Shown here one piece after another: positions 7,297 through 58,866 of a DNA stretch of 64,000 bases. This DNA comes from Somniosus microcephalus (lineage: Eukaryota): positions 42,346,001 to 42,410,000 of the forward strand of contig CM126226.1 of assembly GCA_052327205.1 (NCBI GenBank), in the 5' to 3' direction. The notes below the pieces were generated by a model. It made no database searches. It was not told where the DNA came from and worked only from the letters and a program-made list of their open reading frames with translations. A program made the position numbers and the translations under genes. Position 1 is the stretch's first letter; every line of letters begins with the position of its first letter.

Positions 7297-7934
7297 AGAA
7301 GTAAATGAAATTTTTAAAGAGAAGAAACGGCGAACATTTGTGGCACCAGAGCAAGTCCTAATGTGCCGCAAGGAAGCAGTTTATTCAGTTTTGGCTCAGT
7401 TTTAAATCAATTGAGTTCACTATTTATTTATATACATCTCAAACAATCTAAGACTGTTAGTCCTGAAGCAAAACACACAAAATGGTTTTATTTTGAACCT
7501 ATCTCAATTTCTGCCATTTGCCCATTCAGTGTAAGCTGCAAATCCCCCATCCTGCACAGTCTTCCTCCTCCCTTAGTTAAAACCGGACCCATCCCACCAT
7601 CTCCTACACTAACTTATTCTTTTTCACAGTCTGGAGCTGCTAACCCACCCCCAGTCTTCCCTTTATACTACACCCAACAGACTTTTAAAATCCAAACTTT
7701 GTGTCCCCCAACCACTCTGTGATCTATCTTGTCTTCTCTCTTACTTTTCCCAACCTTGGTGGTATCCTGTAATATGGGCCTCGGCCCTATCACCTCAATA
7801 AAAGGGTGTCCTTGTTTGTGCCTCATGAATAGTCCAAAGGGGTCATTTTAGCCTAACCCGACCGCAGGAAACTGGTGGGAACGGGTCAAATGCTGGTTTT
7901 ACACCCCATCCGATTTTACTCTCCATTGAAGCCA

Positions 7935-8080
7935 AAGATGGCACCTCTGACAGTGCAGCACTCCTTCAGTACTGCATTGTGTCAGTCTAGATAATGGGCT
8001 CAAGAATCTGGAGTGGGACTTGAACCCACAATCTTCAGACTCAGAGTAAGAGTGCTACCCATTGAGCCAAGGCTGGCACT
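7935..8080 (-). mobile_element. Deu-domain SINE, tRNA-derived head fragment
   Basis: Reverse complement contains A box TGGCTCAATGG and B box GGTTCAAGTCC. Confidence 0.75.
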
Positions 8081-8152
8081 TTAAGAAGGAAGGTGGCAAT
8101 CAAAATTTCAGTGTGAAGTTCACTCCAGCCCGCCCCACCTCCCCCCACTCCC

Positions 8153-13579: not shown

Positions 13580-16500
13580 TTTCTTTTTATTGTATTCGTT
13601 TATGGGGTGTGGGCGTCGCTGGCAAGACCAGCATTTATTGCCCATCGCTAATTGCCCTTGAGATGGTGGTGGTGAGCCGCCTTCTTGAACCGCTGCAGTC
13701 CGTGTGGTGAAGGTACTCCCACAGTGCTGTTAGGGAGGGAGTTCAAGGATTTTGACCCAGCGACGATTTAAAGATCAGCGATATACTTCTAAGCCAGGAT
13801 GGTGTGTGACTTGGAGGGGAACTTCGAGGTGGTGGTGTTCCCATGCGCCTGCTGCCCTTGTCCTTCTAGGTGGAAGAGGTCGCGGGTTTGGGAGGTGCTG
13901 CCGAAGAAGCCTTGGCGAGTTGCTGCAGTGCATCTTATAGATGGTACACACTGCAGCCATTTTACGCTGGTGGTGAAAGGAGTAAATATTTAAGGTGGTA
14001 GAGAGGGTGCCAATCAAGCGGGCTGCTTTGTCCTGGATGGTGTTGAGTGTTGTTGGAGCTGCACTCATCCAGGCAAGTGGAGAGTATTTCATCACACTCC
14101 TTACTTGTGCCTTGTAGATGGTGGAAAGGCTTTGGGGAGTCAGGAGGTGAGACACTCGCCGCAGAATACCTAGCCTCTGACCTGCTCTTGTAGCCACAGT
14201 ATTTATGTGGCTGGTCCAGTTAAGTTTCTGGTCAATGGTAACCCCCAGGATGTTGACGGTGGTGGATTCGGCGATGGTAATGCCGTTAAATGTCAAGGGG
14301 AGGTGGTTAGGCTCTCACTTGTTGGAGATAGTCATTGCCTGGCACTTCTGTGGCGCGAATGTTACCTGCCACTTATCAGCCCAAGCCTGAACGTCGTCCA
14401 GGTCTTGTTGCATGTGGGCATGGACTGCTTCATTATCTGAGGAGTTGTGAATGGCGCTGAAAACTGCAGTCATCAGCGAACATCCCCATTTCTGACCTTA
14501 TGTTGGAGGGAAGGTCATTGATGAAGCAACTGAAGATGGTTGGGCCTAGGACACTGCCCTGAGGAACTCCTGCAGTGATGTCCTGGGGCTGTGATGATTG
14601 ACCTTCAACCATCACAACCATCTTCCTTTGTGCTAGGTATGACTTCAGCCAGTGAAGAGTTTTCCCCCTGATTCCCATTGACTTCAGTTTTACTGGGGCT
14701 CCTTGATGCCACACTCGGTCAAATGCTGCGTTGATGTCAAGGGCAGTCACTCTCACCTCACCTCTGGAATTCAGCTCCTTTGTCCATGTTTGGACCAAGG
14801 CTGTAATGAGGTCGGGAGCCGAGTGGGCTTGACGGAACCCAAACTGGGCATCAGTGAGGAGGTTATTGGTGAGTAAGTGCCGCTTGATAGCACTGTCGAT
14901 GATACCTTCCATCACTTTGCTGATAATTGAGAGTAGACTGATGGGGCGGTAATTGGCTGGGTTGGAATTGTCCTGCTTTTTGTGGACAGGACATACCTGG
15001 GCAGTTTTCCACATTGTCGGATAGATGCCAGTGTTGTAGCTGTACTGGAACAGCTTGGCTAGAGGCGCAGCTAGTTCTGGAGCACAAGTCTTCAGCACGA
15101 TAGCCGAGATCTTGTCGGGGCCCATAGCCTTTGCTGTATCCAGTGCACTCAGCTGTTTCTTGATATCACATGGAGTGAATTGAGTTGGCTGAAGACTGGC
15201 TTCTGCGATGGTGGGGACCTCAGGAGGAGGCCGATATGGATCATCCACTCGGCACTTCTGGCTGAAGATGGTTGCAAACGCTTCAGCCTTGTCTTTTGCA
15301 CTCATGTGCTGGGCTCCACCATCTCTTGAGGATGGGGATATTCATGGAGCCCGTTAATTGTTTATTGGTCCACCACCATTCACGACTGGAGGTGGCAGAA
15401 CTGTAGAGCTTTGATCTGATCCATTGATTGTGGGATCACTTAGCTCTGTCTATAGCATGCTGCTTCCACTTTTTAGCATGCATGTAGTCCTGTGTTGCAG
15501 CTTCCCCGGGTTGGCACCTCATTTTTAGGTACGCCTGGTGCTGCTCCTGGCATACTCTTCTACACTCCTTATTGAACCAGGGTTGATCCCCTAGCTTGAT
15601 GGTAATGGTAGAGTGAGGGATATGCCAGGCCATAAGGTTACAGATTGTGGTGGAATACAATTCTGCTGCTGCTGATGGCCCACAGCGCCTCATGGATGCC
15701 CAGTTTTGAGCAGCTAGATCTGTTCTGAATCTATCCCATTTAGCACAGTGGTAGTGCCACATAACACGATGGAGGGTGTCCTCAGTGTGAAGATAGGACT
15801 TCGTCTCCACAAGGACTGTGCAGTGGTCACTGCTACCAATACTGTCATGGACAGATGCATCTGCGACAGGTAGATTGGTGAGGATGAGGTCAAATAGGTT
15901 TTTCCTCGTATTGGTTCTCTCACCACCTGTTGCAGGCCTAGGCTGGCAGTTATGTCCTTCAGGACTCGGCCAGCTCAGTCAGTAGTGGTGGTACTGAGCC
16001 ACATTTGGTGATGGACATTGAAGTCCCCCACCCAGAGTACATTCTGTGCCCTTGTTACTCTCAGTGCTTCTTCCAAGTGGTGTTCAACATGGAGGAGTAC
16101 TGATTCATCAGCTGAGGGAGGGCGGTAGGTGCTAATCAGCAGGAGGTTTCCTTGCCCATGCTTGACCTGAAGCCATGAGACTTCATGGGGTCTGGAGCCA
16201 ATGTTGAGGACTCCCAGGGCCACTCCTTCCTGAATGTATACCACTGTGCTGCCACCCCTGGTGGGTCAGGACATACCCAGAGATGGTGATGGAGGAGTTT
16301 GGGACATTGTCTGAAAGGTATGATTCTGTGAGTATGACTATGTCAGGCTGTTGCTTGACTCATCTGTGGGACAGCTCTCCCAATTTTGGCACAATTCCCC
16401 AGATGTTGGTGAGGAGGACTTTGCAGGGTTGACTGGGCTGGCTGTGCCATTGCCGTGTCCATTGCTGGTGCTGAGGTCGATGCCAGGTGGTCTATCCAGT

Positions 16501-16864
16501 TTCATTTTTATTATTGTGTTTCGTAGCGATTTGTTACAACTGAGTGACTTACTTGCTAGGCCATTTCAGAGGGCAGTTAAGAGTCAACCACTTTGCCGTA
16601 GGTCTGGAGTCACATATAGGCCAGGCTAGGTAAGCACAGCAGATTTCTTTCCCTACAGGACATTAGTGAACCAGATGGGTTTTTACAACAATCCGATAGT
16701 TTCCTGGTCACCATTACTGATACTAGTAATTATTCCAGATTTATTTAATTAACTGATTTTAAATTCCCAGCTGCCGTGGTGGGATTTGAACTCACGTTTC
16801 AGGATCCTTAATTCAGGCCTCTGGATTACTAGCCCAGTGACATTACCACTATGCTACCGTTCCT
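13580..16864 (-). mobile_element. Near full-length CR1/L2-group (Jockey-like) LINE with tRNA-like 5' head and no ORF1
   Basis: APE endonuclease (NIWG..KLGEL..QQPDIVILTESYL; YRPPS; GDFNVHH), RT (DINAAFDRVWH, GVPQGSVLGP, FADD), C-terminal domain and 3' tail; 5' ~430 bp has A box TAGCATAGTGG (16846-16856) and B box GAGTTCAAATCCC (16781-16793). Confidence 0.9.
13660..16430 (-). pseudogene. LINE ORF2 (APE endonuclease + reverse transcriptase), disrupted
   Basis: Pieces in ORFs 15975-16244, 15714-15926, 15436-15810, 14433-15305 and 13775-14296, separated by frameshifts and stops. Confidence 0.9.
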
Positions 16865-17300: not shown

Positions 17301-19574
17301 GAACCAACAAAGAGTCAGTAGGTGTATGTGTGTGGATACTGGAGGAGGAATATGGTGCCCCCTCCATTCAAATAGAACACTGACATTCACCGTCAAGGTC
17401 CACACATTAATACTGGCCACTTGTTTGAGGTATTGGAGCGCAGCCCCTGTCCAGGGAACCGCACCCCTGTCCAGGGAACCGCACCCCAGCCAGGGTGGTG
17501 GGGTTGGAGTGGTGGTCTTCAGAGCAGGTGGAGAACAAATGGAGGTGGGGAAGAAGAGCGGAGGAAGTGTGAATGGGTATTAACAGAATTAAAGGCTGGC
17601 TGTCTGGACTGCCCTTGGCAAACATAGCTATAGATACTAAGCCAAGTGTACATTTTTGTGCCTTCTGATTTGAATTCCTCCTCCCTCTGCCCCGTATCAT
17701 AACTGAATCCACAAATGTTTATATTCTTGATTGTACCATTTCCTCTCTGCTCTCCTGATGCATTTTCCCGTCTTTTTTAAGCAATATATCCTGTAAAACT
17801 AAGACACATCCCAAATACCAAGTGACAGAGGGTAACAGTGGAATTATTGTTGCAGGCTTGGTCTGGTTTTCATTAGGGGATGTAATGGGTCCAATTTCTG
17901 AGCTAGGCCGCTTAGTCAAAACTCCCTTGTCGTGTTATACACTGGCAGTTAAGTGATGTGGCAGAGGGCTCCTTCCGTTGTAAAATAACAAACCCTGCTT
18001 TGTTAATTATTTTGGTGTCAATTAACCCACAATTTATGACACTGGAGCAAATTTACAAGACTGAAGTCCACCACCTGCACCCCCACTTTTAAGAATAGGA
18101 GTCTACCGAACATTGGAATGAACATTTGCATTTTACATAAATAAACTACAAGAGGAAATTACTGCCAATGGAGGCCTGACGTAAGCGGGGCAGGGACTCC
18201 CTACATCAGGAGATCCTGTGCCATGGTTCTCAGTCAGGACCCAACATAGTGTCGGCAGAAGTCAGACCTGGTATCCCCGAAACCTGGCGGAAGTCTGGCC
18301 CACCTGGGGTCCAGGCTAGACAGGAGCCCTGAAGATCAGGGGACAAAATGTTTCTTGTTAAATATTTGAGCAGTGCCACTTCAGTGAGAGGGTGGGCACA
18401 GTGGGAGGGCGGGCGCAGTGAGAGGGCGAGCATTGCAGATCTGTCTGCTCCTTGTGACCCCCCTCCCCTGACCCTGTAATCTTTGGTACAGCCAGTGGCA
18501 GAGGCCGTGGGTGGGCACACTCTGGCATTTATGCCAGGATATGCCCTCTCTGTTGATTTTTGGAGCCCAGGTGTTTCTCTCAGGTGAGCAGCCACTTGCA
18601 ATAATGGGTTCTATATTCTAATAACTCTTCATGCTTCTAGTACTATTCTTAAATGCACAAAATAGCGTGTCTTGCATATTCATCTGACGTAGGTCATGTG
18701 ATATTGGAGCAAAGCCTCTGATTGTATGGATGTGATCATCGTTCATTTCTTTAGAGTGTGTTGGGGGAACAGGTAATTAAAGTAACTAAACTTCCTTCTC
18801 CTCTTTCTATCACGTAGCTGTTGAAAACAAAAAAGGAACAGGACCAGAGCTTGTGTTACCGGGATGGTGCCAAGAGTTTGCTTATATCCGGCCCACTTGT
18901 GTTTGGATTTCACTGTGTATGTTTCTCAGCAATGAAGCCTGTTCCAGGCTACGCTTTACATCCCAGCTTAAGTTGCTGTTCTGACAAACAGCCTTTGCCA
19001 GGACCACATTTGTGCAGAGGCCTACGGGGCCCATTCCGAAGGACTCTGGTGAAACATGGGGGTCCCCTCGATCGTCCCCTTGAACACAACGTAAACGTAA
19101 ATAGCGCTGGCTGCAATAATTGCAAAGCACAGTGGTCAGTGACTGTAATTTGAGTGCTGGGGGATGGGGTTTAAGTTACCTGACTGTGGCCGTTCCTGCG
19201 CCGTGCAGTCTGCAGGTGCTTCCAGCGGAGGGAAGATGTGGTCGAAGAAGCCTGTGAGCAGAGCGGGAAGAAGACACTGGAGCCTCACAGCAGGGGCGGG
19301 AAGATGTGGTGGAAGGACTTCTAGAAGCCTCCACAGCTCTTCACAAAGTTGGACATTTAATCATTAGGCATTTTATTACACTTTTGTGTTTTAAGGAATG
19401 GGGGTGGAGAGCTGGAATGTTCTTGGCACCCAAGAATTCTTAATGTGGCCTTGGCCTTTGCAGCCTGAAAAGCAAAGCAGCACCTCAAGCCCAGGCATAG
19501 GACCAGCACTTTACCCTCAAAAACAAAACACACTTTAGCCCTGACTCCCTCAGAGCAGAAAACCGTATGGTAAG

Positions 19575-19975
19575 AAAGAAAGACTTGCATTCACAAAGAG
19601 CCTTTCATGACCTCAGGATGTCAAAAATTGTTGTAATATATGAAATGCGGCAGCCAATTTACACACAGTAAGTTCCCACAAACAGCAGTGAAGTAAATGA
19701 CCAGGTGATCTGTTTTAGGTGTTGGCTGAGGGATAAATGTTGGCCAGGACACTGAGAACTCCCCTGCTCTTCTTCGAATTGTGCCATAGGATCTTTTATG
19801 TCCACTTGAGAGGGCCTTGGTTTAACATCTCATCCAAAAGATGGCACCTCCGACAGTGCAGCACTCCCTTGGAGTGTCAGCCTAGATTATGTGCTCAAGT
19901 CTCTGGAGTGGGATTTGAGCCCACAATGTTCATGACTTAGGAGTGAGAGTGCTATCACTGAGCCAAGGCTCACAC
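19575..19975 (-). mobile_element. Deu-domain SINE, near full length
   Basis: Tail AAGAAAGAAAGACTTGCATT, Deu core and tRNA head. Confidence 0.85.
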
Positions 19976-19992
19976 CTTTATTGTGTGTTGTG

Positions 19993-21990: not shown

Positions 21991-22323
21991 TAATTGGTGA
22001 GGACAATCGACACGGCTCAGCCCGGCCACGATTGAACAGTGTCCTCAAATCACATGGCAAGGTACTGGACGGGAGCTGGCGTCCCTGGAACCGTATCCCA
22101 AGAAGAGTCAGCTTCCAGAGGTGGAATACCACCAGAATTAGAGACTGTTCTTTACTCAGAGAGTGCTGAGAATATGGAACTCACTACCAGTGATTGCGGT
22201 GATTGGCATTTAAGGGACTAGATAAGTACACAAGGGAGATAGGAATACAAGGATATGTTGATAGGGTGAGAAGAGGTAACTAGTGTGAAAGGAGGCCCGT
22301 GCAGAGCATAAACACCGGTATAG

Positions 22324-23195
22324 GCAGTGTCAGCTGTGAAGAGGATGTGAAGAAGCTTCAAGGGGATCTCGACAGGCTCAGTGAGTGGGCAAGAACATGG
22401 CAGATGGAATGCAATGTGGACAAATGTGAAGTTATCCACTTTGGTAGAAAAAACAGAAAGGCAGAGTATTTCCTAAATGGTGAAAGATTGGGGAATGCAG
22501 ATGCTCAAAGGGACCTGGGTGTCCTTGTATATGAGTCACTGAAAGTGAATGTGCAGGTGCAACAAGCCATTAGGAAGGCAAATGGTATGCTGGCCTTCAT
22601 TACAAGAGGATTTGAGTACAGGAGTAAAGTAGTCTTACTCCAATTATATAGGGCCTTGGTGAGACCACACCTGGAGTACTGTGTACAATTTTGGTCTCCT
22701 TACCTAAGGAAGGATATACTTGCATGGAGGGAGTGCAACGAAGGTTCACGAGATTGATTCCTGGGATGGCGGGACTGTCGTATGAGAAGAGATTGAGTAA
22801 ATGAGAGGGGATCTCATTGAAGCGTACAAAATTATTATAGGGCTTGATAGGGTGGATGCTGGGAGAATGTTTCCCTTGGCTGGGGAGTTTAGAACCAGGG
22901 GCCACAGCCTCAGGATAAAGGGTAGGCCATTCAGGACTGAGATGAGAAGAAATTTCTTCACACAGAGGGTGGTGAATCTTTGGAATTCTCTACCCCAGAG
23001 GGCTGTGGAGGCTCAGTCATTGGGTATATTCAAAACAGATAGATTTCTGACTAGTAAGGGCATCAAGGGATATGGCGATAGGGCCGGTGAATGGAGTTCA
23101 GGCAGAAGATCAGCCATGATCTCATTGAATGGCGGAGCAGGCTCGAAGGGCCGAATGGCCTACTCCTGCTCCTATTTCTTATGTTGTTATGTACT
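22324..23195 (+). mobile_element. CR1 (HER1-like) LINE, 5'-truncated, inserted into an older CR1 3' end
   Basis: LQGDLDRLSEWARTWQMECNVDKCEVIHFG..RPHLEYCVQFWSP..RGDLIE..RVVNLWNSLP; TSD TATAG (22319-22323, 23196-23200). Confidence 0.95.
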
Positions 23196-23849
23196 TATAG
23201 ACCAGGTGGGCCGAATCGCCTGTTTCTGAGCTGTAACTTCTATGCATTCAATATTAATGTTAGATTTTTTAGGAATTTCCTTCATCCATCATTTTAATTT
23301 AAGTGTTAACCCGTTTATTTTAAATGGTTTAACCGCCTGTTAATACAGCAGAGGAATTCCATAAAAAGGGGTTAACGTGACATCTTTGTGTCATTCTCCT
23401 GGTGACTTGTAAAGCAGGTTGTTGAAAGGATTAAGTGTGACGCAGCACCCTCACTACAATACAGGGATCGTATTTACAACAGAAAGCTCAAGGCAATTCT
23501 CAGGAGAAGGTCACAGCCAAAATAATTATTAATGATTGAAATGAACCAGTCTGATAACAAAATAATTGCTGCTGGGGTTCGGCATCTCACCCAATTAAAT
23601 TTTGCAGTGAAATGATTTAGAAATAATTATTAACAAAGAAAATATATGCACAGATTTGTATGGGACGGATCGTTGATATAATCACAATATGAACGATTCC
23701 ACGCTCTGCTGCCTCCGACAGGAATTGAAACAATCTGCTCCTTTAAAAGGAGGGAGACTTCAATATAAAATAATCGTCTTAAGAACTTTTATCCGTGCTT
23801 TCCAACACTGCAACGCAAGGATGCAAACTGTGCACTCAGGTAAAGAGAG

Positions 23850-24308
23850 AAAGAAAGAAAGACTTGCATTTATGTAGCACCTTTCATGACCTCAGGACAT
23901 CACAAAGTGCTTCACAGCCAATTAGGTACTTTTGAAGAGTAGTCACTGTTGTAATGTAGAAAACACGGCAGCCAATTTGCGCACAGCAAGCTCCCACTAA
24001 CAGCAAAATGATAATAACCTGATAATCTGTTTTTAGTTATGCTGGTTGAGGGATAAATATTGGCCCAGTGCACCAGGAATAACTCCCCTGCTATTCTTCA
24101 AATAGTGCCGTGGGATCTTTTATGTCCACCTGAGAGAGTCCTCGGCTTAACGTCTCATCTGAAAGGTGGCACCTCTGACAGTGCAACACTCCCTCAGTAC
24201 TGCACTGGAGTGTCAGCCTAAATTTTGTGCTCAAGTCTCTGGAGTGGGACTATGAACCCACAACCTTCTGACTCAGAGATGAGAATGGTACCATTGAACC
24301 ACGGCTGG
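23850..24308 (-). mobile_element. Deu-domain SINE (SacSINE1-like), full length
   Basis: tRNA-like head, body, Deu core and L2-like tail all present. Confidence 0.9.
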
Positions 24309-25049
24309 GACCTGAAAGTATCATCATAATGCCTGCAAAGTGACTCCATTCTAATTTAAATAGCACGTATTTGTTTGTTAGTTTCCCTCTCCCAAACTAA
24401 GACAATTCCCCTTTAAATTGTAAAGCCAAAAGACAGAGGTTCCCCTAAAAGCCTCCTGGCTTTGTAAAGGCTAGTACTCAATTATATAGATTGTAAGGAC
24501 CCCAAGATCAATTCCCATCTGTGACCTGTACCACAGAAGTAGTCGACACCTTCAGGAGAGGAGGTTGGGGGGAAAAGGGGTGAAAGAAAAATTCAGACAA
24601 TGTAGAATCTACCCTATCAGACCATGTACAATGTATTCTATCATGAACAATCTACTGAATCAAGCAACTAAATAACTTTAATATTTGTTGGGTTATCTCC
24701 TGTCGGCTTCTGTTAATATTTGTTGTTCGGGCAGGGAGTGCCGATGACACATGAGTGGAAGGAACTGATAAGCCTAACAATGTTGGGGATCTGAATTTAT
24801 TGTCAGAAGGGATAAACTTGTAAAAGTTGTAGAAGTGTTTTAATTCAACTGTGCAAGTTACTGAGTTCCCTTGGGCAGTCAAGTTCAGTAACCCTTTCAG
24901 GCCAGTTCCCCTGATGATGTCAGGCTAACCAAAAAGTTTCTAAAACAAAAGTTAACCAACTCCCAGGTGTCATAATGATTTTACCCAATGAATAACTGAG
25001 CCATATAGATCAGGGAGGACCTAGATTCAACCCCCTATCTGTACTGAGC

Positions 25050-26362
25050 TCCATCTCTGGAGATAAGTTATTGACCAATATTCACTACAAGCCCACTGAC
25101 TCCCACAGCTACCTGGACTACACTTCCTCCCACCCCGCCTCCTGTAAGGACTCTATTCCATTCTCCCAGTTTCTCCGTCTCCGCTGCATCTGCTCCGACG
25201 ATGCCACCTTCCACACCAGTGCTTCCGACATGTCTTCCTTTTTCCTCAACCGAGGATTTCCCTCTACCGTGGTTGACACGGCCCTCGACCGTGTCTGTTC
25301 TATCTCCTGCACTTCTGCCCTCACCCCTGCCTCTCCCTCCCGGAACCACGATAGGGTTCCCCTTGTCCTCACCTTTCACCCCACCAGCCTCCACATTCAA
25401 CGGATCATCCTCCGCCATTTCCGCTAGCTCCAAAGTGATCCCACCACCAAACGCATCTTCCCCTCCCCTTTCAGCATTCCGTAGGGACCGCTCCCTCCGA
25501 GACACCCTAGTCCACTCCTCTATCACCCCCAGCACCCCTTCCCCTTCGCCTGGCACCTTTCCGTGCAAGCGCAGGAGATGTAACACCTGCCCCTATACCT
25601 TCCCCCTTCCCACTGTCCAGGGCCCCAAACACCCCTTCCAGGTGAAACAGCGATTTACTTGTACTTCTTGCAATCTAGTATACTGTATTCGCTGCTCACG
25701 ATGCGGTCTCCTCTACATTGGGGAGACCAAACGCAGATTGGGTGACTGCTTTGCGGAACACCTCCGTTCAGTCCGTAAGGGTGACCCCGAGCTTCTGGTC
25801 ACCTGTCATTTTAATTCACTGCTCCATTCCCACTCGGACCTCACCGTCCTTGACCTCTTGCATTGTTCCACGGAAGCTCAACGTAAACTCGAGGAACAGC
25901 ACCTCATCTTCTGATTAGGCAATTTGCAGCCTTCCGGACTCAATATCGAGTTCAACAATTTCAGATCATAACCTCGCCCCTATTACATTTTTACTTATAT
26001 TTTTTATCCACCCCTTTGTTTTGGTTTTTCCCTCCCCCCCTTTCCTTTTTTTCTCTCTCCCACATGGCAGCTGTCTCTCATTCTGCCAGAATATTTCACA
26101 CCTAATCTGAGCCGTCTTTTGTCTCCACTAGTCCTATCACCACCTCGTCTCGTTTTGAATACCTCTTAATGTCTCTCCACTTCTTTTGTTCTCTCCCAGC
26201 CCTGCCTTTCGATCTATTTCATTTCCTTTCCAGTTTTGAAACAGGGTTAGACCCGAAACGTCGACTCTAATTTCTGTCCACGGATGTTGCCTGGCCTGCT
26301 GAGTTTTTCCAGCATTTTCTGTTGTTATTTCGGATTTCCAGCATCTGCAGTATTTTGCTATC
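25050..26362 (+). mobile_element. Penelope-like element, 5'-truncated: RT thumb, GIY-YIG endonuclease and 3' pseudo-LTR
   Basis: YKPTDSHSYLDYTSSHP..KDSIPFSQFLRLR.IC; C..RRCNTC; NLVYCIRCSRCGLLYIGETKRRL..FAEH; QPSGLN; 3' GACCCGAAACGTCGACTC..CCTGCTGAG..CCAGCATTTTCTG; frameshifted; interrupts a family B SINE. Confidence 0.95.
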
Positions 26363-28890: not shown

Positions 28891-30851
28891 ACACAAGGCT
28901 AGTGTCTGAAATCTTCTGGTGGGCTGACCCTCTGAGAGGCATTCAGAATCAATTGCAGGTCTTTGTAGAAAAAAAATAATAAAAGTATAGATTCATAAAG
29001 GGTAGCCAGGCTGCAGAATTCACTGTATGAAGTTTCCAGACCCCTCGAGCTCACAAACTCTTCAGTTTCGCCGTGATCGACTGATCCTGGCAGCGGCTGC
29101 ACCTAATTTATTTCAGTCTAAGTTACCCAAGAAGGGTGCAGAAACTCGGGGAGGGGGAGGGGGGAGGGTTTTAAAGGTGCACAAGCGATGTGAACGGCCT
29201 CCACCCAAATTTCCTCACTAAAAGAAAACATTCTGTGCCGTTCGTGCATGGTAAGTACGCCAAAAATATCAAGGAAATTCACCACCCAGAATCCCAACTC
29301 TCAGAGTGAACTCTGCCCTAATAATGGGAACCTTCACATGTTAAAATAATCATTGGTTTACTTGAAATAATGAAAAGTGATATTAAAAATACACTCTCTG
29401 TGGTGTTGTCCATGATATAGGATTGTGGGTTACAGGTTCCAAAAGCACCTCTGCACATACCTCCGTGCCACAGATACAATGTTCAAACACTGTTTCAACC
29501 TGAAACCGATTAATAGCCAAGAAACCCTACGTAGAAAATGTTAGTTCATTCCATAGCTCTCTTGAATTTTACTGGAATGATGTTTCTCCATACTGTTCAA
29601 AGGAGGTGGTGGGTGGGTGGCGTGGGGGGGCCTGGGGGGGGGTAGGTTGGCGGGGTGGGGGGGGGGGAGAATGACCATCATGGTGACCAGTGTTCTCACT
29701 TCATTACAATGACAGTACTGTTAGCGCTCTGCTTAACCCTTTCAGTACAGTGCAAGGCTGCACTAGACTGAACAACATCTCATCACTTTTGAAGTGGAAA
29801 AAAACCTCACGCAGAAGCTCATCATTTGAACATTTCATACTGTGGTTACCTTGGCAGGGTTCTGAAAGTATTAGGAGACAAAATGGACTGGTGTGTAAAA
29901 GGATACGTGTCTTCCTTCTGCAGTCTAGTCATTGCCTTGGCCAAGTTGGCTCAAATAGAGAAATGTATTAGCCAAAAAGTAATGTTGTTAGCATTTTCCT
30001 CAACTGGCTGGTGGTAATGCCAACAACTGAACAGCACATAGAGGAGGGTTAGATTAATATAGAGAGAGCCCCCAAAAATGCTCGCTAGTGCCAAACCAAA
30101 TGGATCTTTGAGTTCTTGGGAAATGAAATAAGGGGCTCATACAACAGAAAGGATGGAGCAACTCAGAGGCAAAGTTGAGCAACAAATTACCCAATGGTAA
30201 GTGATCTGGAGGTATTAGCCCTCAAGATCTTAGGTTGTCCATTATTGGGGGCTTGCAGTGTTTGGAAGAACACGAGCAATTGGCAACTCAAAGCTCTCCT
30301 TGAAATCCTAGCATGTTTAAAAAAACTTACTGAAATTCCTGAAAGTGACCAGAGGGAAACAGGAGTATTTCCTGTACTGGCCAATTAGAAGATTGACTGA
30401 CTTTTTATTTTTGAAAAATTCCAGTCAAAAAAACATTGTTTTTTGGAGAAAAAAAATCGCTTTTACAGCTAATGTACCACAGTACATGAAATGTGAAATC
30501 AAATACAGCACACTAAATTAATTTTTCAGTCCCAGGAACATTTTTTTCTGGAATGTTTTAAAAATACATGTATATCTTTTTTCCCTTTCTTTTGCTTTTT
30601 CACCCTTTGAAATATCCACTGCTGTCTGTCTACCGCAGCCACACTTTCCTGCTCTAGTTGGGAGGGCGTCTTGTTCTGCCAAGTTTCCTTGCTCTCCCTC
30701 CCCTCCCTTCCCCGCACAGCATCTGTCAGCAAGGCTGAGAATTGGCAAGCCTCGTCCAGTGAACGGAGGCAGGTTTCAGCTCCAGAGGCTGGAGTGGTTT
30801 TAATTTCTAGATATTTCTAGGCTTTCATTATTTCTCTATGGAAGGGTACTA

Positions 30852-31218
30852 TAGACTAGTGGTTATGATACTGGGCTAGCAATCTAAAAGTCATGAGTTC
30901 ACAATCCCACCGTTCCTATTGAATTCAATAACTTGTGGCCCACACCAGAAAAGTGACCATCAAAGCTGCCAAATAGTTGCATAAACTCAACTGGTTCACT
31001 AATGTCCGTCAGCAAAGGGCATTTGCCACCCTGACCCTGCTTGGCCGTCATGTGACTCCTGTCCCACACTATATGGTTAACTCTCCATGCCCTCTAAAGT
31101 GGCCAAACAAGCCACTCAATTGTAAAAACAAGCACTCAAGAAGAAGGTCCACCACCACCTTCTTAGGGCTGTTAAGGATGGGCAACGTCACCCACATCCT
31201 GAGAACAAATTTAAATAA
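30852..31218 (+). mobile_element. tRNA-headed SINE sharing head, body and tail with the 13580-16864 LINE
   Basis: TAGTGGTTATGATACTGGGCTAG..GAGTTCACAATCCCACC..CTGGTTCACTAATGTCC..ATGTGACTCC..GCCCTCTAAAGTGGCC..AAGCCACTCAATTGTA, then AAGAAGAAGGTCCACCACCACCTTCT..GGATGGGCAA..CCCACATCC. Confidence 0.8.
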
Positions 31219-31264
31219 ACATGTTTAACAAGGCTTTGATTTTCTCTTTCCTGGTCAACTTTCA

Positions 31265-31612: not shown

Positions 31613-32128
31613 TGCTGGGAATACTCTCCACTTGCCTGGATGAGTGCAACGCCAACAACATTGAAGAAGCTCGACACCATCCGGGACAAAGCAGCCCACT
31701 TGATTGACACCCCATCCACCACCTTAAACATTTGCTCCTTCTACCACCGGCGCACCGTGGCTGCAGTGTGTACCATCTACAAGATGCACTGAAGCAACTC
31801 GCCAAGGCTTCTTCAGCAGTACCTCCCAAACCCACGAGCTCTAACACCTAGAAAGACAAGGGCAGCAGGCGCATGGGAACACCATCACCTGCAAGTTCCC
31901 CTCCAAGTCACACACCATCCTGACTTGGAAATATATCGCTGATCCTTCATTGTCGCTGGGTCGAAATCTTGGAACTCCCTCCCTAACGGCACTATGGGAG
32001 TACCTTTACCACGCGGTCTGCAGCGGTTCAAGAAGGCGGCTCACCACCGCCTTCTCGAGGGCAATTATGGATGGGCAATAAATGCTGGCCTTGCCAGCGA
32101 CACCCACATCCCAGGAACGAATAAAAAA
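31613..32128 (+). mobile_element. 3' fragment of the same LINE family as 13580-16864
   Basis: EYSPLAWMSATPTTLKKLDTIRDKA..LQRFKKAAHHRLLEGN and 3' tail. Confidence 0.9.
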
Positions 32129-33685: not shown

Positions 33686-34043
33686 GGCCTAGAAATTGGG
33701 TATAGCCCCGCTTGAGGCACTAGAACTGGCGGTGCGCAATGTTTATAGCCAGACGAAACTTATCGCTGCCTGGCGAGATATTGGGTTGCATTGTCCCCAA
33801 AGGGGATTGAGGTGCTAATTCAGCCGTTGCACGGTGCTCCTAAGGCGCAAAAGTTCAGGTGCTACTCAATATCGACGCGGACGGGCACAGCGCAGGTGAT
33901 CTCAATTACGGGAAACCATGAGACTTCCAGGCGCCGGCCGGCTCTTAAAGGGGTGGGTCAGTCAGCCTGAGCTGCCACACCCAACGCCCTGTAGGCCTCA
34001 GAATCGGCGCTCGCCCTTCTCTGGCGTTAGAAACTTGTTGAGC

Positions 34044-35884
34044 ATGGAGAAGGTTAGACAGAGAGCAGAGCGCTTCAGCACTGAGGCTCTGGACCAGTTG
34101 GTGGCTGCAGTTGAGCGCCGTCGAGATGTCCTGTATCCGGACAATGGCAAGAGGCCGAATCAGAAGGCTTACCGGCGATCTTGGAGGGAGGTTGCTGTGA
34201 GGGTCAACTCCAGCAGCATGGCGACCAGGACCCCTGTTCAGTGCAGGAAGAAATTCAACGACCTCACACGGATCGTTAGGGTGAGTGATGGCTTAGCAAA
34301 CTTCTGATTCCCTCCATCTGCAGCTGACTTCGGGCACCCTGTTGCCATGATGCCCCAATGGCCATCTGTCAGCAAGCACCCATGGCCCTTTCTGGGCACA
34401 CACATAGACAGATGTCTCAAGGCCTCATATAAGGGCTCTTTCACCATGGGGGGCATGCGATGATGTCTCAAGGCCTCATGTAAGGGCTCTTTCACCATGG
34501 GGGGCATGCGATGATGTCTCAAGGCCTCATGTAAGGGCTCTTTCACCATGGGGGGCATGCGATGATGTCTCAAGGCCTCATGTAACACAACTTCCCCTTC
34601 TTTCCTCTCCAGGCCAAGCTGGCGGCCAGGCGAAGGGACCACTTTCAAACCGGTGGCGGGCCTCCACAAGTGGTCCCTCTCACGGATCTGGAGGAGAGAG
34701 TGCACCAGATTCTTGGAGGACGTCTGCCTGGTCCTGTGACCACTGCATCTGCCGACCCCATTTCCGACAGCGAGGGTAAGACTCTCACCTTTTTCACCTG
34801 TTGCCTTCCACTTGGTCCCCCCGCCAGCATGCTCCCTCAGTGTGCAGCCATGTCAGAGCCTTGCCACAATCTGGCATGCCTTCCCGCAAACCTGTCCTTT
34901 TGCTAAAGCAACTCTTCCACCTCCCTGCTTTCAGATGAATCAGCACCAACTCGGACTCAACGCACTGAAGCTGCCAGTGCCAGTGCCACTGGAGGCGAGG
35001 AGCAGGAGGAATCCGGACCAGCCATTGCAGAATCCGGGGAGCGGACACATCTACAGACTGGGGATAGTAGTCCCCTGGAGGGGAGGGGGGGCGGCTCTGA
35101 GGATGAACCAGTTGCCGGAACAAGCGGCATGCAGCAACGCAAGGGGGATAGGCAAGTTCGGCCACCATCTCCCCGGAGGGCAAGGCAGGTAGTTATGACT
35201 GCTGCTCAGAGTGCAGAGGAGGTGCGTCGCCTGGGTGAAATGAGCAAACAGGCCCAGCTCAGACACACGGAGCTGATGGCTGCAGTGGAGAAGATGCCTC
35301 AGTCAATAGATTCATTAGCTAAGAGTATGTTGGACTTCGGGGCAACAATGGAGATGACTCTCCAGGGCTTTGGGGCAACAATGGACAGGACTCTCCAGGG
35401 CTTCGGGGCAACAATGGACAGGTCTATCCAGGGCTTCGGGGCAACAATGGACAGGTCTATCCAGGGCTTCAGGCCAACAATGGAGAGGACTATCCAGGGC
35501 TTTGGCCCAACAATGGAGAGGACTGTCCAGGGCTTTGAGGCCGCTGTGGAAAGGACTGTTCAGGGCTTCGGACAATCCCTGGAAAGGTCTGTCCAGGGCT
35601 TGTCCGAGGCAGTGGAGCGGTCGGCACCTGCCTTGTCCGAAGCAATGGAAAGAACTGTCCAGGGCTTCTCCGAAGCACTGGCACCTGGCACACAGGTCCT
35701 CACTGTTGCCACGCAGTCACTTGCTGGGCTCGTCCACACCCAGATTGCGGGAAAGATGGGCACAGATTTGGGAGGTGACAACATGTTCAAGGAAAGGGAG
35801 GTTGGAGATGAAAAACTCGTTGAAATCATGACTTTTATTAAAATAGGGCTGAAGACCCATACGACGGCTGGTGCCCCTGGGTAG
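34044..35884 (+). CDS. Harbinger Myb/SANT-like DNA-binding protein (MSANTD/NAIF1-like), 3 exons 34044-34280, 34613-34775, 34935-35884, 449 aa
   Basis: RAERFSTEALDQLVAAVERRRDVLY..WREVAVRVN..RTPVQCRKKFNDL and TGGGPP..LTDLEERV motifs; canonical GT-AG introns (phase 0 and 1); 237+163+950=1350 nt with no internal stop; ATTAAA at 35944. Confidence 0.8.
34411..34585. repeat. 51-bp tandem repeat (~3.4 copies) in intron 1 of the Myb gene
   Basis: Unit GATGTCTCAAGGCCTCATGTAAGGGCTCTTTCACCATGGGGGGCATGCGAT. Confidence 0.95.
35333..35695 (+). repeat. 33-bp coding tandem repeat (~11 copies of GFGATMDRSIQ-like 11-mers)
   Basis: Unit approximately CAGGGCTTCGGGGCAACAATGGACAGGTCTATC, in frame with the Myb gene. 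Confidence 0.95.
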
Positions 35885-37957: not shown

Positions 37958-39084
37958 AAATTTTTTTTTATTTGTTCCTGGGATGTGGGTGTCACTGGCA
38001 AGGCCAGCATTTATTGCCCATCCCTAATTACCCTTGAGCAGGTGGTGGTGAGCCGCCTTCTTGAACCGCTGCAGTCCCTGTGGTGAAGGTATTCCCATAG
38101 TGTTGTTAGGGAGGGAGTTCCAGGATTTTGATCCAGCGACGATGAAGGAACGGCGATATACTTCCAAGTCAGGATGGTGTGTGACTTGGAGGGGAACTTG
38201 AAGGTGATGGTGTTCCCATGTGTCTGCTGCCCTTGTCCTTCTAGGTGGAAGAGGTTGCGGGTTTGGGAGATGCTGTCGAAGAAGCCTTGGCGAGTTGCTG
38301 CAGTGCATTTTGTAGATGGTACACACTGCAGCCACGGTACGCCGGTGGTGGAGGGAGTGAATGTTTAAGGTGGTGGATGGGGTGCCAATTAAGCGGGCTG
38401 CTTTGTCCTGGATGGTGTCGAGCTTCTTCAGTGTTGTTGGAACTGCACTCATCCAGGCAAGTGGAGAGTATGCCATCACACTCCTGACTTGTGCCTTGTA
38501 GATGGTGGAAAGGCTTTGGGGAGTCAGGAGGTGAGACACTCGCCGCAGAATACCCAGCCTCTGACCTGCTCTTGTAGCCACAGTATTTATGTCGCTGGTT
38601 CAGTTAAGCTTCTGGTCAATGCTGACGCCTATGATGTTGATGTTGATGTTGATGTTGGGGGATTCGGCAATAGTAATGCCGTTGAATGTTAAGGGGCAAT
38701 GGTTAGACACTCTCTTGTTGGAGATAGTCATTGCCTGCCACTTGTGTGGCATGAATGTTACTTGCCACTTATCAGTCCAAGCCTGAATGTCATCCAGGTC
38801 TTGCTGCATGCGAACATAGATTGCTTCATTATCTGAGGAGTTGCGAATGGAATTGAACACTCAGCAATCATCAGTGAACATCCCCACTTCTGACCTTATG
38901 ATGGAGGGAAGATCATTGATGAAGCAGCTGAAGATGGTTGGGCCTAGGACACTGCCCTGAGGAACTCCTGCAGCGATGTCCTGGGGCTGAGATGATTGGC
39001 CTCCAACAAGCACAACCATCTTCCTTTGTGCTAGGTATGTCTCCAGCCAGTGGAGAGTTTTCCCTCTGATTCCCACTGACTTCA
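37958..39084 (-). mobile_element. 5'-truncated copy of the 13580-16864 LINE family
   Basis: GVPQGSVLGPTIFSCFINDLP..FTDD through AAHHHLLKGN and 3' tail. Confidence 0.95.
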
Positions 39085-39449
39085 ATAAATTATAATATGG
39101 GAGGATGGGGGTTGGGGGGGGCGTGTGCGGGGGGTGGTGGGAGTGATAATTCCCTCTATCTGCTGCGTAGGACAAAACCCGTTTATCAGGAACACACAGA
39201 GAGAAGCTATTCCCCATATACTGTCAGCTGAGGGATACTTGATTTGTTTATGCATTTGTTAGAACTTTGCTGTTTTGTGTTCACTGGTCCAAGTGTACAA
39301 CCAGGATGGGCGTGGTTTGGGACCAATAAAAAAGGAACAATTAGTAGTTTGGGAATGGTAAAAAGCCACAGGGATTATCATCTCAACTGAATAAAGGAAT
39401 TAAGAATCAGGAGCTTTTCATTTTGCTGCTGTATATACAGTTATAAGAT

Positions 39450-40612: not shown

Positions 40613-41618
40613 GGGCAGGATTTTCATTGGGCCGTGGAGGTGGGATTGGAGGCGTGTGGGGGGTTAAAATCTCGAAATCGGGGGGCACGAACCCAACCCG
40701 CCCCCCAACCCGCCTCCATGCCAGTTTCAAAGGAGGCGGATACCCGACCTGCGCTGGGACCCGCCTCCCCAAGGCGGGAAGGGGATTAGTGCCAATTAAC
40801 TGCCTGTTAACAGATTGTCAGTGTTTGACAGCTTCAAACAGCTGTCAAACGCTGATATTTCATCTGTCAAAAGCTCTTGACAGATGAAATGTCAATCTGT
40901 GACATCACCTGTTGCCGGGTGGCCTTTAATTGGCCTGCTGAGCCCGCTGGGTGGGCTCAACAAGGTAGGTAACAGGTAGTTAACAGGCAGTTTTTAGCCT
41001 AATCCCTATTTTTATTCCTGAAGTGTGGGATTCCCGACGGCTCCAAACCACGCCAAGTTAGTGAGGCGGACCGTCGGGCTGAAGGGCTTGGAGGGTTCGA
41101 GATGTCCAGTGTTCAGGTGAGTGATGGGTGCATGAGTGCAAAGATAAGTGTGTTTGGTGTGTGTAAAGTGTTTAAAGAAGTTTAATTACCTTTACTTACC
41201 TTTACAGCCTTCCTTCCTTCAGGTCTCGGGAGTCCCTCATCTCACTGGCACAGAAAGCAGAATGGCCGCGAGCTGTCAAAAGTTGCAGCATTCAGCTTTC
41301 TGTTCCGGAGAGATCTCTAAATCAGCCTGAGAGGAAGGAATTAACTTGGAATACAGATTGTCAGTGTTTGACAGCTTCAAACAGCTGTCAAACGCTGATA
41401 TTTCATCTGTCAAAAGCTCTTGACAGATGAAATGTCAATCTGTGACATCACCTGTTGCCGGGTGGCCTTTAATTGGCCTGCTGAGCCCGCTGGGTGGGCT
41501 CAACAAGGTCAATCAAGTGAAAATCGCGTGGGTTGGCCACAACTCGATGGAGGCGGGACTACAACCCCGAAAGTTGTAGTCCCACCTCCATCACGCCTCC
41601 AGTATCAAAATCCAGCCC
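40613..41618. mobile_element. Harbinger-type non-autonomous element, 1006 bp
   Basis: TIRs GGGCAGGATTTTC / CAAAATCCAGCCC; TSD AGA/AGA; flanks AGATAC and GTGTCT; internal identical 157-bp duplication. Confidence 0.9.
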
Positions 41619-43175: not shown

Positions 43176-44518
43176 AGGGTCCAGGAGTATGTTGATATTT
43201 GTGGGAGGGGGGTCCCGGGAGTGAGCTGATATTTGTAGGGGGGGTCCCGGGAGTGAGCTGATATTTGTAGGGGGGGGTCCCGGGAGTGAGCTGATATTTG
43301 TAGGGGGGGGGGTCCCGGGAGTGAGCTGATATTTGTAGGGGGGGTTCCCGGGAGTGAGCTGATATTTGTAGGGGAGTCCCGGGAGTGAGCTGATATTTGT
43401 AGGGGGGGGGGTCCCAGAAGTGAGCTGATATTTGTAGGGGGGGGGGGTCCTGGGAGTGAGCAGATATTTGTAACGGGGGGGTCCCGGGAGTGAGCTGATA
43501 TTTATAGGGGGGTCCCGGGAGTGAGCTGATATTTGTAGGGGAGTCCCGGGAGTGAGATGATATTTGTAGGATGGGGTCCCAGGAGTGAGCTGATATTTGT
43601 AGGGGGGGGGTCCCAGAAGTGAGCCAATATTTGATGGGGGGGTTCCCGGGAGTGAGCTGATATTTGTAGGGGGGGGTCCCGGGAGTGAGCTGATATTTGT
43701 AGGGGGGGGTCCCGGGAGTGAGCTGATATTTGTAGGGGGGTCCCGGGAGTGAGCTGATATTTGTAGGGGGGTCCCGGGTGTGAGCTGATATTTGTAGGGG
43801 GGGTCCCGGGAGTGAGCTGATATTTGTAGGGGGGGTCCCGGGAGTGAGCTGATATTTGTAGGGGGGGTCCCGGGAGTGAGCTGATATTTGTAACGGGGGG
43901 GTCCCGGGAGTGAGCTGATATTTGTAGGGGGGGTCCCGGGAGTGAGCTGATATTTGTAGGGGGGGGTCCCGGGAGTGAGCTGATATTTGTAGGGGGGGTC
44001 CCGGGAGTGAGCTGATATTTGTAGGGGGGGGTCCCGGGAGTGAGCTGATATTTGTAGGGGGGTCCCGGGAGTGAGCTGATATTTGTAGGGGGGGGTCCCG
44101 GGAGTGAGCTGATATTTGTAGGGGGGGTCCCGGGTGTGAGCTGATATTTGTAGGGGGGGCGGTCCCGGGAGTGAGCTGATATTTGTAGGGGGGTCCCGGG
44201 AGTGAGCTGATATTTGTAGGGGGGGTCCCGGGAGTGAGCTGATATTTGTAGGGGGGGTCCCGGGAGTGAGCTGATATTTGTAGGGCGGGTCCCGGGTGTG
44301 AGCTGATATTTGTTGGGGGGGGTCCCGGGAGTGAGCTGATATTTGTAGATGGGTCCCGGGAGTGAGCTGATATTTGTAGGGGGGGGGTCCCGGTAGTGAG
44401 CTGATATTTGTAGATGGGTCCCGGGAGTGAGCTGATATTTGTAGGGGGGTGGGGTCCTGGGAGTGTGCTGATATTTGTAGGGGGGTGGAGGGATCGCAGG
44501 AGTGTGCTGATATTTATA
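43176..44518 (+). repeat. G-rich minisatellite, about 40 units of ~31-36 bp
   Basis: Constant core TCCCGGGAGTGAGCTGATATTTGTA followed by a G run of variable length. Confidence 0.97.
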
Positions 44519-44828: not shown

Positions 44829-44941
44829 CATCAGCTCACTCCCGGGACCACACCCCTACAAACATCAGCTCGCTCCTGGGACCCCCCTACAAATATCAGC
44901 ACACTCCCTGGACCACTCCTCTACAAATATCAGCCCACTCC
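44829..44941 (-). repeat. About 4 degenerate units of the same minisatellite in inverted orientation
   Basis: CATCAGCTCACTCCCGGGACC..CCCCTACAAATATCAGC. Confidence 0.9.
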
Positions 44942-48508: not shown

Positions 48509-49295
48509 AGAAGATGACGCAAATCAAGAATCAGTGGTTAGGTGACACCAAGCTTGGACTTTAAAGGCCTATAGATTGTGGGAGGGAGGAAAAACTAAGG
48601 ATGTTCAGGAGATACAGTTTTTAGAAGCTGCTAAAGATTAAGTCTGAGTAGGACTCATGGTGCTGTCGCCTATCTTAAATCATTCTTAATCAGAACCTTA
48701 AAACCATGGCACTCCTCCTCTCTAAATTTTCCCTGCCCCCTACAACACAGGGCTGGATTTTCTCAATGGAGGAATGATGGAGGCGGGACTGCTGCTTGCT
48801 GGGTTTATGTCCCACCTCCATCAGCCTCTGGCCAGCCAGTGGGATTTTCCCCTGATTGACCTTGTTAAGCCCGCCCAGCGGGCTCAGCAGGCCATTAGGG
48901 GGAAGTCACTGACAGAGCACGTCAATGTCTGACGTGCTATCTGTCAAGATTTCTTGAAAGAAGAAACGTCAGCGTTTGACAGCTCTGTGAAGCTGTCAAA
49001 CACTGACATTCTGGGCTGGATTTTGTCAGTGTGGGCAGGCTGGGACGTGTCAGATGGAAATCGTTTCAGGACCCCGCCTCCTAAGTGAAGTGTTGAAAAA
49101 GTGGGATTTTCCCCTAATTGGGCAATTGATTTCCTGTGTGTGGGAACCCTTGGCCCAATTAGTCTTTTCATAAAGAAAGTCGCCTCCGATGATGTCATCA
49201 ATGCTGCTGGATTTAAGACCTGCAAGCAGCCTTGCTTCTTCTGGAGACTGCAAAGGCTCTGCAAATTGTATGAAGGGGGAGTTGATTTCCCGACA

Positions 49296-52200: not shown

Positions 52201-53537
52201 GTGAGTGAGGAGGACATAAAAATCCTGCAAGGGGACATAGACAGGCTAAGTAAGTGGGCAGAGATTTGGCAGATGGAATACAATACTGGAAAGTGTGAGG
52301 TTATGCACTTTGGCAGGAAAAATCGTAGAGCAAGTTATTATCTTAATGGCAAGAAACTGGAAAGTACTGAAGTACAAAGGGATCTGGGGGTCCTGGTGCA
52401 CGAAACTCAAAAGGTTAGTATGCAGGTGCAGCAAGTGATTAAGAAGGCCAGTGGAATGTTGGCTTTCATTGCTAGGGGGATAGAATATAAAAATAGGGAG
52501 GTATTGCTTCAGTTGTACAAGGTATTGGTGAGACCGCACCTGGAATACTGCGTACAGTTTTGGTGTCCATACTTAAGAAAGGACATACTTGCTCTCGAGT
52601 CAGTACAAAGAAGGTTCACTCGGTTAATCCCGGGGATGAGGGGATGGACATATGAGGAGAGGTTGAGTAGATTGGGACTCTACTCATTGGAGTTCAGAAG
52701 AATGAGAGGCGATCTTATTGAAACATATAAGATTGTGAAGGGGTTGGATCGGGTGGATGCGGGGAGGATGTTCCCGATGATGGGTGAAACTAGAACTAGG
52801 GGGCATAGTCTTAGAATAAGGGGCTGCTCTTTCAAAACTGAGATGAGGAGGAACTACTTCACTCAGAGGGTGGTAGGTCCATGGAATATGCTGCCCCAAA
52901 AAGCTGTAGAAGCTACATCATTACATAAATTTAAAACAGAAATAGACAGTTTCCTAGAAGTAAAGGGAATTAAGGGTTACGGGGAGCGGGCAGGAATTTG
53001 GACATGAGTCTAGGTTCGGATCGGTCATGGCCCTGTGGGTAGAGGAGTGGGCCCAGGGGCCGTGTAGCCTGATCCTGCTCCTATTTCGTGTGTCTAATTC
53101 TGTTAGATTCAGGAGATGGTTCTGTGATAGTAGATTGGCGGTTAGGATCAGATCAGCCATGATCTTATTGAATGGCGGAGCAGGCTCGAGGGGCCGATTG
53201 GCCTACTCCTGCTCCTATTTCTTATGTTCTTATGTTCTTATAACAAGGAAGTGGGGGCTCCTCTCCAAGCGCTCACACGACCATGCCACTGCAAAGCCCT
53301 CGGTCAGAGCCCCACCAGAGTCCTCACCCAACTGAGATGGGCGTCTCAGCCCCTGCACAGCCGCAGGAGCAGCAGACTGTTGCCGAGCCCTCACAGGTTC
53401 GCAACCCCAGAGGACGGCTGCCAAAGGTGTCGAGACAGGAGCAGCAAGAAAGTGAGCAAGGGGCCTCCACATCTGCTGAAGCCACAGGGGAAGCACCACA
53501 TAGGAGCATGCGTAAGAGGAAGATAATGCACAAGTAG
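49296..53537 (+). pseudogene. Harbinger Myb/SANT-like gene, 3 exons (49296-49535, 49858-50017, 50174-53537 split by a LINE)
   Basis: AP*FDEPSLQALV..WLQVA*EV..RTWLQCRKRFHDLLRTGK|EKRAHNKRERAMTGGGPP..LTAWEEAALEI; several in-frame stops compatible with CGA>TGA and CAG>TAG; basic C-terminus RSMRKRKIMHK*. Confidence 0.85.
50942..53241 (+). mobile_element. Young 5'-truncated CR1 (HER1-like) LINE; RT ORF with a single frameshift near 52025
   Basis: ORFs 50921-52042 and 52096-53007: KSPGPDG, NYRPVSL, QHGF, DFQKAFDKVPH, GVPQGSVLGP, FADD, RPHLEY; (TATGTTCT)n tail; endonuclease domain absent. Confidence 0.97.

Positions 53538-58835: not shown

Positions 58836-58866
<31 letters not shown>

Follow-up and report, generated by a model that had tools for sequence, protein, structure and literature searches.

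A Zenon-type LINE of sharks and rays opens with a tRNA-like SINE head and may be transcribed by RNA polymerase III

Can a long interspersed element (LINE) that encodes its own endonuclease and reverse transcriptase (RT) carry the 5′ end of a short interspersed element (SINE) as a family trait, and if so, which polymerase transcribes it and where does its translation start? The question is raised by a locus of Somniosus microcephalus (assembly GCA_052327205.1, contig CM126226.1, positions 42,346,001–42,410,000 of the forward strand); the window is this whole stretch of 64,000 nt, and its own coordinates are used throughout. The minus strand at 13586–16864 holds a full-length, decayed Zenon-type LINE of the CR1 group, ~3.28 kb long, in which a tRNA-like head and a SINE body run directly into the coding region. 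It is near certain that this SINE-type 5′ end is shared family-wide across elasmobranch Zenons. Our reading, to which we give a rough probability of 0.62, is that the headed Zenon would be an autonomous, protein-coding LINE made by RNA polymerase III (Pol III), propagating by the cycle modeled below. The parts of the element, from its 5′ end, are as follows.

13586–16864, minus strand: the LINE, full-length and decayed (sequence, Pfam, nhmmer; the longer published elasmobranch Zenon consensuses are 3244–3314 nt)
16778–16864, minus strand: tRNA-like head (Rfam RF00005, 26 bits, E 0.0065)
16846–16856, minus strand: A box (A-box/B-box pattern scan)
16800–16816, minus strand: second, anticodon-arm-like hairpin, decayed here (sequence, an insertion in the Rfam alignment; pairing by eye in the consensuses)
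16781–16793, minus strand: B box (A-box/B-box pattern scan)
16531–16777, minus strand: SINE body common with a free SINE at 30844–31128, no tail after it (alignment)
16506–16530, minus strand: A-rich spacer of a length that varies among species (sequence; consensuses by eye)
16338–16505, minus strand: short AUG-initiated frame, 55 codons here, overlapping the APE start one base out of register
16420–16506, minus strand: leader in the APE frame, without AUG, Arg-rich in other copies (protein P0122 aligns here)
15800–16419, minus strand: APE endonuclease domain, broken, 3′ boundary approximate (Pfam PF14529, E 2.5e-08)
14466–14981, minus strand: RT domain (Pfam PF00078, E 3.4e-29)
13581–13650, minus strand: stop of the open reading frame (ORF; 13650–13648), ~60-nt 3′ untranslated region (UTR) with a stem-loop and AATAAA (13639–13634), and A-rich tail

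The element has a single ORF, in which Pfam recognizes APE (PF14529 and PF03372 within 15978–16265) and RT (PF00078 within 14436–15341). Only 445 nt separate the 5′ end from the APE frame, which opens at 16419, and therefore no ORF1 fits upstream; the earlier note placed APE near 16430 and likewise saw no room for ORF1. The upstream frames examined with Pfam gave no match before APE. This copy is dead: its ORF is broken by four in-frame stops in five coding segments and by four frame changes, and one more stop lies in the leader. A target-site duplication flanking the whole element was looked for, and none is adjacent. All three LINE copies in the window end in A-rich tails, which are poly-A and not microsatellite, and a similar 3′ stem-loop is predicted in each (z −1.2 to −2.0).

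Within the head, the Rfam tRNA match covers 16778–16857 and model positions 7–64 of 71. AGU stands at the anticodon position, ~22 extra nucleotides separate the anticodon arm from the T arm, and the second hairpin resembles a duplication of 16821–16837. ARAGORN called no tRNA genes in the 64-kb window. A scan of both strands for A and B boxes gave three sites, namely this head and two heads of another repeat family. The SINE-like body described behind the two boxes matches the free SINE and runs straight into the linker and APE, with no tail between the head and the APE–RT frame (ORF2), as the earlier note had seen. The 5′ tRNA-derived head with A and B boxes that marks SINE2 elements is thus present, at an Rfam score below the gathering score of 29; SINE2 elements are short, non-coding and non-autonomous, and this element is 3.28 kb long with APE and RT. 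In the published consensuses, dogfish and galeomorph versions of the second hairpin differ by eye at two base pairs with both sides changed, hinting at selection on RNA structure; the hairpin is mostly missing from the stingray consensus. One explanation is that the tRNA-like head is a processing signal, an RNase P-type cut that would free LINE RNA from host co-transcripts as the R2 ribozyme does. The paired changes between Squalus and galeomorph sharks and a 5′ end that coincides with the tRNA-like +1 agree with it, but the Rfam match has no acceptor stem and the head of the window copy has no cloverleaf fold. We regard a processing signal as very improbable.

Whether the junction belongs to one locus or to a family is answered by published consensuses. 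Table S2 of PMC13343379 was surveyed over the first 400 nt of each of its 1,003 rows, and the window element was compared with the Zenon consensuses by eye, not by program alignment. The order head, body, linker opens all seven elasmobranch Zenon consensuses, which represent five species (white shark, whale shark, catshark, stingray and, with three consensuses, dogfish). The three non-elasmobranch Zenon consensuses, two from hagfish and one from coelacanth, are all headless at their 5′ ends. A 13-nt motif of the body occurs in precisely seven of the 1,003 rows, the elasmobranch Zenons. Six exact B-box 10-mers match six rows, again all elasmobranch Zenons, from a list short enough to miss degenerate heads in other families. 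Over its first ~135 nt the window element departs from SquAca_Zenon-1 at ~9 positions. The six legible counts in Table S3 of the same paper give 59 to 2,313 copies per elasmobranch Zenon family.

These data bear directly on a chance SINE insertion beside a 5′-truncated LINE, or a one-off template-switch chimera. One-off chimeras of small RNAs with LINEs are common for L1 (PMC13174262), and the window has just one headed copy; against chance stand the same junction in seven of seven consensuses from five species and in protein P0125, and a SINE part that lacks a tail. The consensuses already refute a chance origin, unless an assembly artefact is common to them, and we give it next to no weight. 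The suggestion that the SINE–LINE junction may be a family trait has accordingly held up, and the concern that it might be unique to this locus has not. Sharks and rays split roughly 270–300 million years ago, so the head arrangement is old if it was vertically inherited.

The junction was also sought in proteins. A junction-frame search of 1.84 billion proteins returned 40 matches; together with P0079, 41 proteins were examined, and 35 of them have at least 8 residues upstream of APE. P0125 joins the head–body translation to APE with a score of 161, compared to a maximum of 68 in 344 control tiles. Four proteins match the linker beyond all controls, and weak head matches were obtained for P0123 (p 0.064) and P0148 (p 0.055). 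The junction peptide was found in none of 22 candidates among longer proteins. Scans of bacterial and archaeal genomes for shark DNA gave 173 pattern matches to APE, none of them confirmed, and for RT one unrelated bacterial RT (24%); the plasmid collection held no match to the element. As a separate observation, P0134, P0136 and P0048 are predicted host-gene isoforms that include pieces of the LINE. P0134 and P0136 enter it at the same APE position, 16359, which suggests a recurrent cryptic splice acceptor.

By sequence, the element matches the elasmobranch Zenon family of the CR1 group. According to PMC13343379, Zenon is present in elasmobranchs, coelacanth and hagfish, ORF1 is missing from every Zenon LINE and a poly-A tail present in each, and the elasmobranch Zenons had not been deposited in a repeat database. 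The missing ORF1, which the earlier note took to be unusual or replaced by the head, is a general property of Zenons on this evidence, and the head replaces only the 5′ UTR and promoter. RT matches at 75–82% identity come from Heptranchias, Cetorhinus and Mobula, and put the host among cartilaginous fish. An RT tree was built from 63 rows, drawn from 280 matches and two window sequences (the named matches, plus the first 40 of the remaining rows that had high coverage or >60% identity). It groups the element with Heptranchias and Mobula proteins in a clade of 13 rows (100/100), which sits on a long stem amid single-ORF invertebrate relatives and is well separated from the window CR1. The proposed RT phylogeny therefore joins the element to shark and ray proteins, and stops short of naming the clade Zenon since the tree included no labelled Zenon reference. 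Of the canonical features of a vertebrate CR1, the esterase ORF1 is missing and the window CR1 (50.9–53.2 kb) sits on a distant long branch; by DNA the two match only at E 0.008. Single-ORF LINEs bearing a 2A motif are known (PMC3708506), and none of the three upstream frames of the element has a 2A motif upstream of APE. Two 5′-truncated canonical CR1-type copies with short-repeat tails lie on the plus strand at 50940–53240 and 22284–23226; the first, with two long open frames of 374 and 328 codons, served as a control for the T-run counts below.

The window also contains a free SINE related to the head and two further copies of the LINE.

30844–31220, plus strand: free tRNA-SINE whose head and body are homologous and whose tail is the LINE's last ~85 nt (alignment, nhmmer)
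37961–39086, minus strand: 5′-truncated LINE copy, 88% identical (alignment, nhmmer)
31618–32127, plus strand: 5′-truncated LINE copy, 87% identical (alignment, nhmmer)

The segment 16864–16531 of the element aligns with the free SINE at 70% over 182 nt (nhmmer E 5.6e-21), and the free SINE finishes with the LINE 3′ tail, a match of 78% over 51 nt that takes in the 3′ hairpin's outer stem. The free SINE is likely a non-autonomous partner of the LINE. Within the LINE, this common body extends only to 16531 and lacks the tail that a complete SINE insertion would carry. Rfam did not recognize the free SINE by itself. The absence of the second hairpin from the free SINE and its greater divergence agree with an older SINE that donated the head; one copy does not fix the direction, and we infer it tentatively.

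The head raises the question of the polymerase. Pol III probably transcribes the headed LINE, to judge from the start position, the kept boxes and the scarcity of T runs. By eye, the A box begins 6–11 nt from the consensus 5′ end in five species, and the bases before it differ. Since copying at each insertion runs through to the first base of the RNA, a 5′ end fixed near the A box indicates that the start stayed at the tRNA-like +1. The B box is kept as an exact 10-mer in six of the seven elasmobranch consensuses. Vertebrate Pol III stops at four or more T. The sense strand of the element has one run of four T (T4) in 3,285 nt, at a site where the window copy and the 38-kb copy are separated by a substitution and a 2-nt gap. 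There is no T4 in the truncated LINE copies, nor, by eye, in the first 400 nt of the seven consensuses. Runs of T4 or longer are present in the hagfish and coelacanth Zenon 5′ ends, and the window CR1 fragment has seven T4 in 2,001 coding nt. This scarcity is suggestive only as support for Pol III: the search for terminators that the earlier note called for found none at the 5′ ends of the consensuses, and the statistics of scarcity are mixed. Phe depletion as a sign of T avoidance was not persuasive (2.0% versus 3.4 ± 1.2% in 78 relatives, six of them as low). A Pol III-made, protein-coding RNA of 3.3 kb would be very unusual for a self-copying LINE.

Several observations weigh against this reading. 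Dinucleotide shuffles expect 2.0 ± 1.2 T4 (P(≤1) 0.37), and P(≤1) is 0.30 with the first two codon bases fixed; it falls to 0.096 and 0.014 under freer recoding, where the CR1 control is also at or below its null (7 versus 9.9 and 7.8). AATAAA stands ~45 nt before the tail, as in an RNA polymerase II (Pol II) transcript, and agrees with Pol II or with Zenon ancestry. The B box of the stingray consensus is degenerate, and this consensus is the one of seven missed by the 10-mers; the Rfam tRNA score of the head is below the gathering cut-off, and the head is matched beyond all controls in one of the 35 testable proteins. The 5′ 465 nt of the window copy fold no better than shuffles (z +1.07), with no structure resembling an internal ribosome entry site.

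Part of this evidence would suit a head that is fixed in the family and acts as an internal Pol II promoter, or as a TFIIIC-assisted Pol II start. The RNA would then be capped and polyadenylated at AATAAA, and the A and B boxes would be helpers or relics. SINE-borne Pol II promoters are known from mouse B2. AATAAA precedes the tail in all three window copies, T4 depletion is statistically weak, the stingray B box is degenerate, a capped RNA is easier to translate, and Zenon exists elsewhere without a tRNA head (PMC6740152; hagfish, coelacanth). The fixed position of the 5′ end and the B-box 10-mer argue the other way, and capping does not solve translation, since cap-dependent scanning meets six upstream AUGs with none in the APE frame. 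We consider Pol II transcription a real but doubtful possibility.

The start of translation is the second puzzle. Between the 5′ end and 60 nt into APE, none of the nine AUGs in the window copy is in the APE frame. A conserved AUG at 16505 is present by eye in six of the seven consensuses and absent in SquAca-3. Here it is off the APE register by one base, as it is in the stingray consensus, which alone among the long consensuses is seen through the APE start. In the short SquAca-2 consensus a deletion brings the AUG in frame, which counts against full generality. The predicted proteins P0079, P0124, P0126 and P0129 begin at the AUG equivalent to 16505; together with P0122 and P0123 they join the APE frame at varying positions, a pattern expected from copy-specific frameshifts. 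The Arg-rich leader in the APE frame is seen in P0122 and resembles the leaders of relatives. Among relatives, an APE start is detectable in 69 of 120 long matches, with a median leader of 12 residues that is often basic; one of the 69 has a 2A motif. The length of the spacer varies among species, and therefore no start in the SINE body is conserved. A start there, from an upstream AUG or by read-through of a conserved AUG-GCC-UAG, was rejected as a general route: inspection by eye puts it in the APE frame for white shark, catshark and stingray but out of that frame for whale shark and dogfish. No conserved −1 slippery heptamer of canonical form was seen by eye in the linker, and 2A recoding was set aside for lack of a motif. 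We would guess that translation of ORF2 begins at 16505 or next to it, through either a one-base shift or a non-AUG codon.

The missing in-frame AUG could alternatively mean that the headed 3.3-kb form is a non-autonomous "long SINE", made by Pol III, never translated and carried by a rarer headless or in-frame Zenon master. It agrees with the nine out-of-frame AUGs of the window copy and with the stingray consensus, in which no in-frame AUG is seen by eye. Intact ORF2 is also rare in Table S3 of PMC13343379 (0/2313, 1/1419, 3/612, 0/59, 1/294 and 0/396). However, the 10 Zenon consensuses include no headless elasmobranch Zenon, the consensuses keep nearly full RT and most also keep endonuclease coverage, and the ORF of a non-coding passenger would decay and shorten. 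An untranslated passenger is improbable on these grounds.

The cycle that we propose for a Pol III-made, autonomous LINE would run as follows. Transcription by TFIIIC and Pol III would begin with the head's first base, run through 3.3 kb nearly free of T4 and through the encoded A tail, and end, as it does for SINEs, in flanking DNA. The uncapped RNA would yield a little ORF2 protein, from a non-standard start near AUG 16505, through either a one-base register shift or initiation at a non-AUG codon within the A-rich spacer. After binding of this protein to the 3′ stem-loop, target-primed reverse transcription would insert the RNA with its promoter copied along; the same protein may also mobilize the tail-sharing SINE. 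The head was probably acquired in a single event ancestral to sharks and rays, through a template switch to the partner SINE or recombination with it. We would put at even odds the proposition that, ahead of the shark/ray split, an autonomous LINE lineage exchanged its Pol II leader for a SINE head and has multiplied ever since through a coding, uncapped Pol III RNA of 3.3 kb, purged of T4 and lacking an in-frame AUG for its translation.

SINE pieces are reportedly found at the 5′ ends of BovB LINEs. The nearest systems are the elasmobranch Zenons themselves (SquAca_Zenon-1, CarCar_, RhiTyp_, ScyCan_ and HypSab_Zenon-1 in PMC13343379), members of the same family with ~3.3 kb, a single APE–RT ORF, no ORF1 and an A tail, and without structural difference from the element in the published portions compared. 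The words tRNA, promoter and polymerase do not occur in the text of PMC13343379 as available, where the head and the out-of-frame AUG apparently go unremarked. The lepidopteran Zenon and its SIDE Persaeus (PMC6740152) also combine a single ORF, 3.1–3.7 kb and a poly-A tail with a short partner that has both ends in common; unlike the element, Persaeus, which carries the Zenon 5′ end, is described as having no tRNA homology and no Pol III promoter. The hagfish and coelacanth Zenons differ likewise in their headless, T4-containing 5′ ends. In the tRNA-headed SINEs with bipartite LINE parts (PMC5786205) a tRNA head is joined to LINE-derived sequence as it is here, but those SINEs are short, non-coding and stated to be unable to encode protein, whereas the head of the element sits on a complete APE–RT ORF. 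Zenon acts as a SINE partner in bivalves as well, in the Zenon-tailed SINEs of PMC11481361. The U6– and tRNA–L1 chimeras (PMC13174262), in which small-RNA sequence is fused 5′ of a LINE during insertion, offer a plausible origin for the fusion; the tRNA cases occupy few loci (21 in human) and are mostly half tRNAs in antisense, whereas the head described here is in sense, promoter-intact and fixed in a multi-copy family of sharks and rays. R1 and R2 (PMC2881922) are non-LTR elements with proposed non-Pol II transcription and cap-independent translation, as we propose here, but they borrow Pol I by inserting into rDNA, and the element carries its own putative Pol III promoter. SacSINE1 and CmiSINE (PMC5499810) and the UCON3 SINEs (PMC7245038) are, like the element, tRNA-headed repeats of cartilaginous fish; by description rather than alignment, SacSINE1 and CmiSINE differ in their L2-type tails. 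UCON3 was rejected as the body domain, two body motifs being absent from the supplement of PMC7245038 as available. No report of a tRNA-headed autonomous LINE family was found in the literature, a search with Repbase Reports, Dfam and most subscription papers outside its scope, so that an earlier mention is possible.

Other features of the window stand apart from the Zenon element. Another abundant family of repeats with a tRNA head, ~470 nt long, bears A and B boxes of its own and has no relation to the Zenon head; it is represented at 58419–58884 (minus strand), with relatives near 1440–1700, 7934–8082, 19570–19980, 23850–24310, 57690–57970, 61130–61560 and 62900–63320; we presume that it may be SacSINE1-like. 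A Myb/SANT-like DNA-binding domain with stops (PF13873, E 6e-06) lies at 49281–49538 on the plus strand, with a similar frame near 33900–34304 (plus strand). Exon-like segments follow the former up to ~50950, where the CR1 begins, and it looks like a decayed Harbinger-type Myb gene. Long open frames occupy 24996–25911, and 24996–25424 (plus strand) reads to us like the C-terminal part of a Penelope-type RT. A minisatellite of 39.5 copies of a 32-bp unit fills 43193–44485, with an inverted stretch at 44830–44941. An exact direct duplication of 157 bp (40810–40966 and 41353–41509) is related to 48750–49013 (minus strand).

Shark repeat annotation will split the element into a "SINE" and a "truncated LINE". 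The family raises the questions of whether Pol III can drive an autonomous LINE, how ORF2 starts without a cap or an in-frame AUG, and whether sharing head and tail with a SINE helps or burdens the LINE. If a multi-copy LINE keeps a tRNA-type promoter across sharks and rays, the textbook division between LINEs as Pol II coding elements and SINEs as Pol III non-coding elements would break. The headed Zenon would then exemplify in nature a long Pol III RNA that codes for protein and would be a living "autonomous SINE" that links tRNA-SINEs and LINEs, and its origin would be a transfer of a module from SINE to LINE, the reverse of the usual direction.

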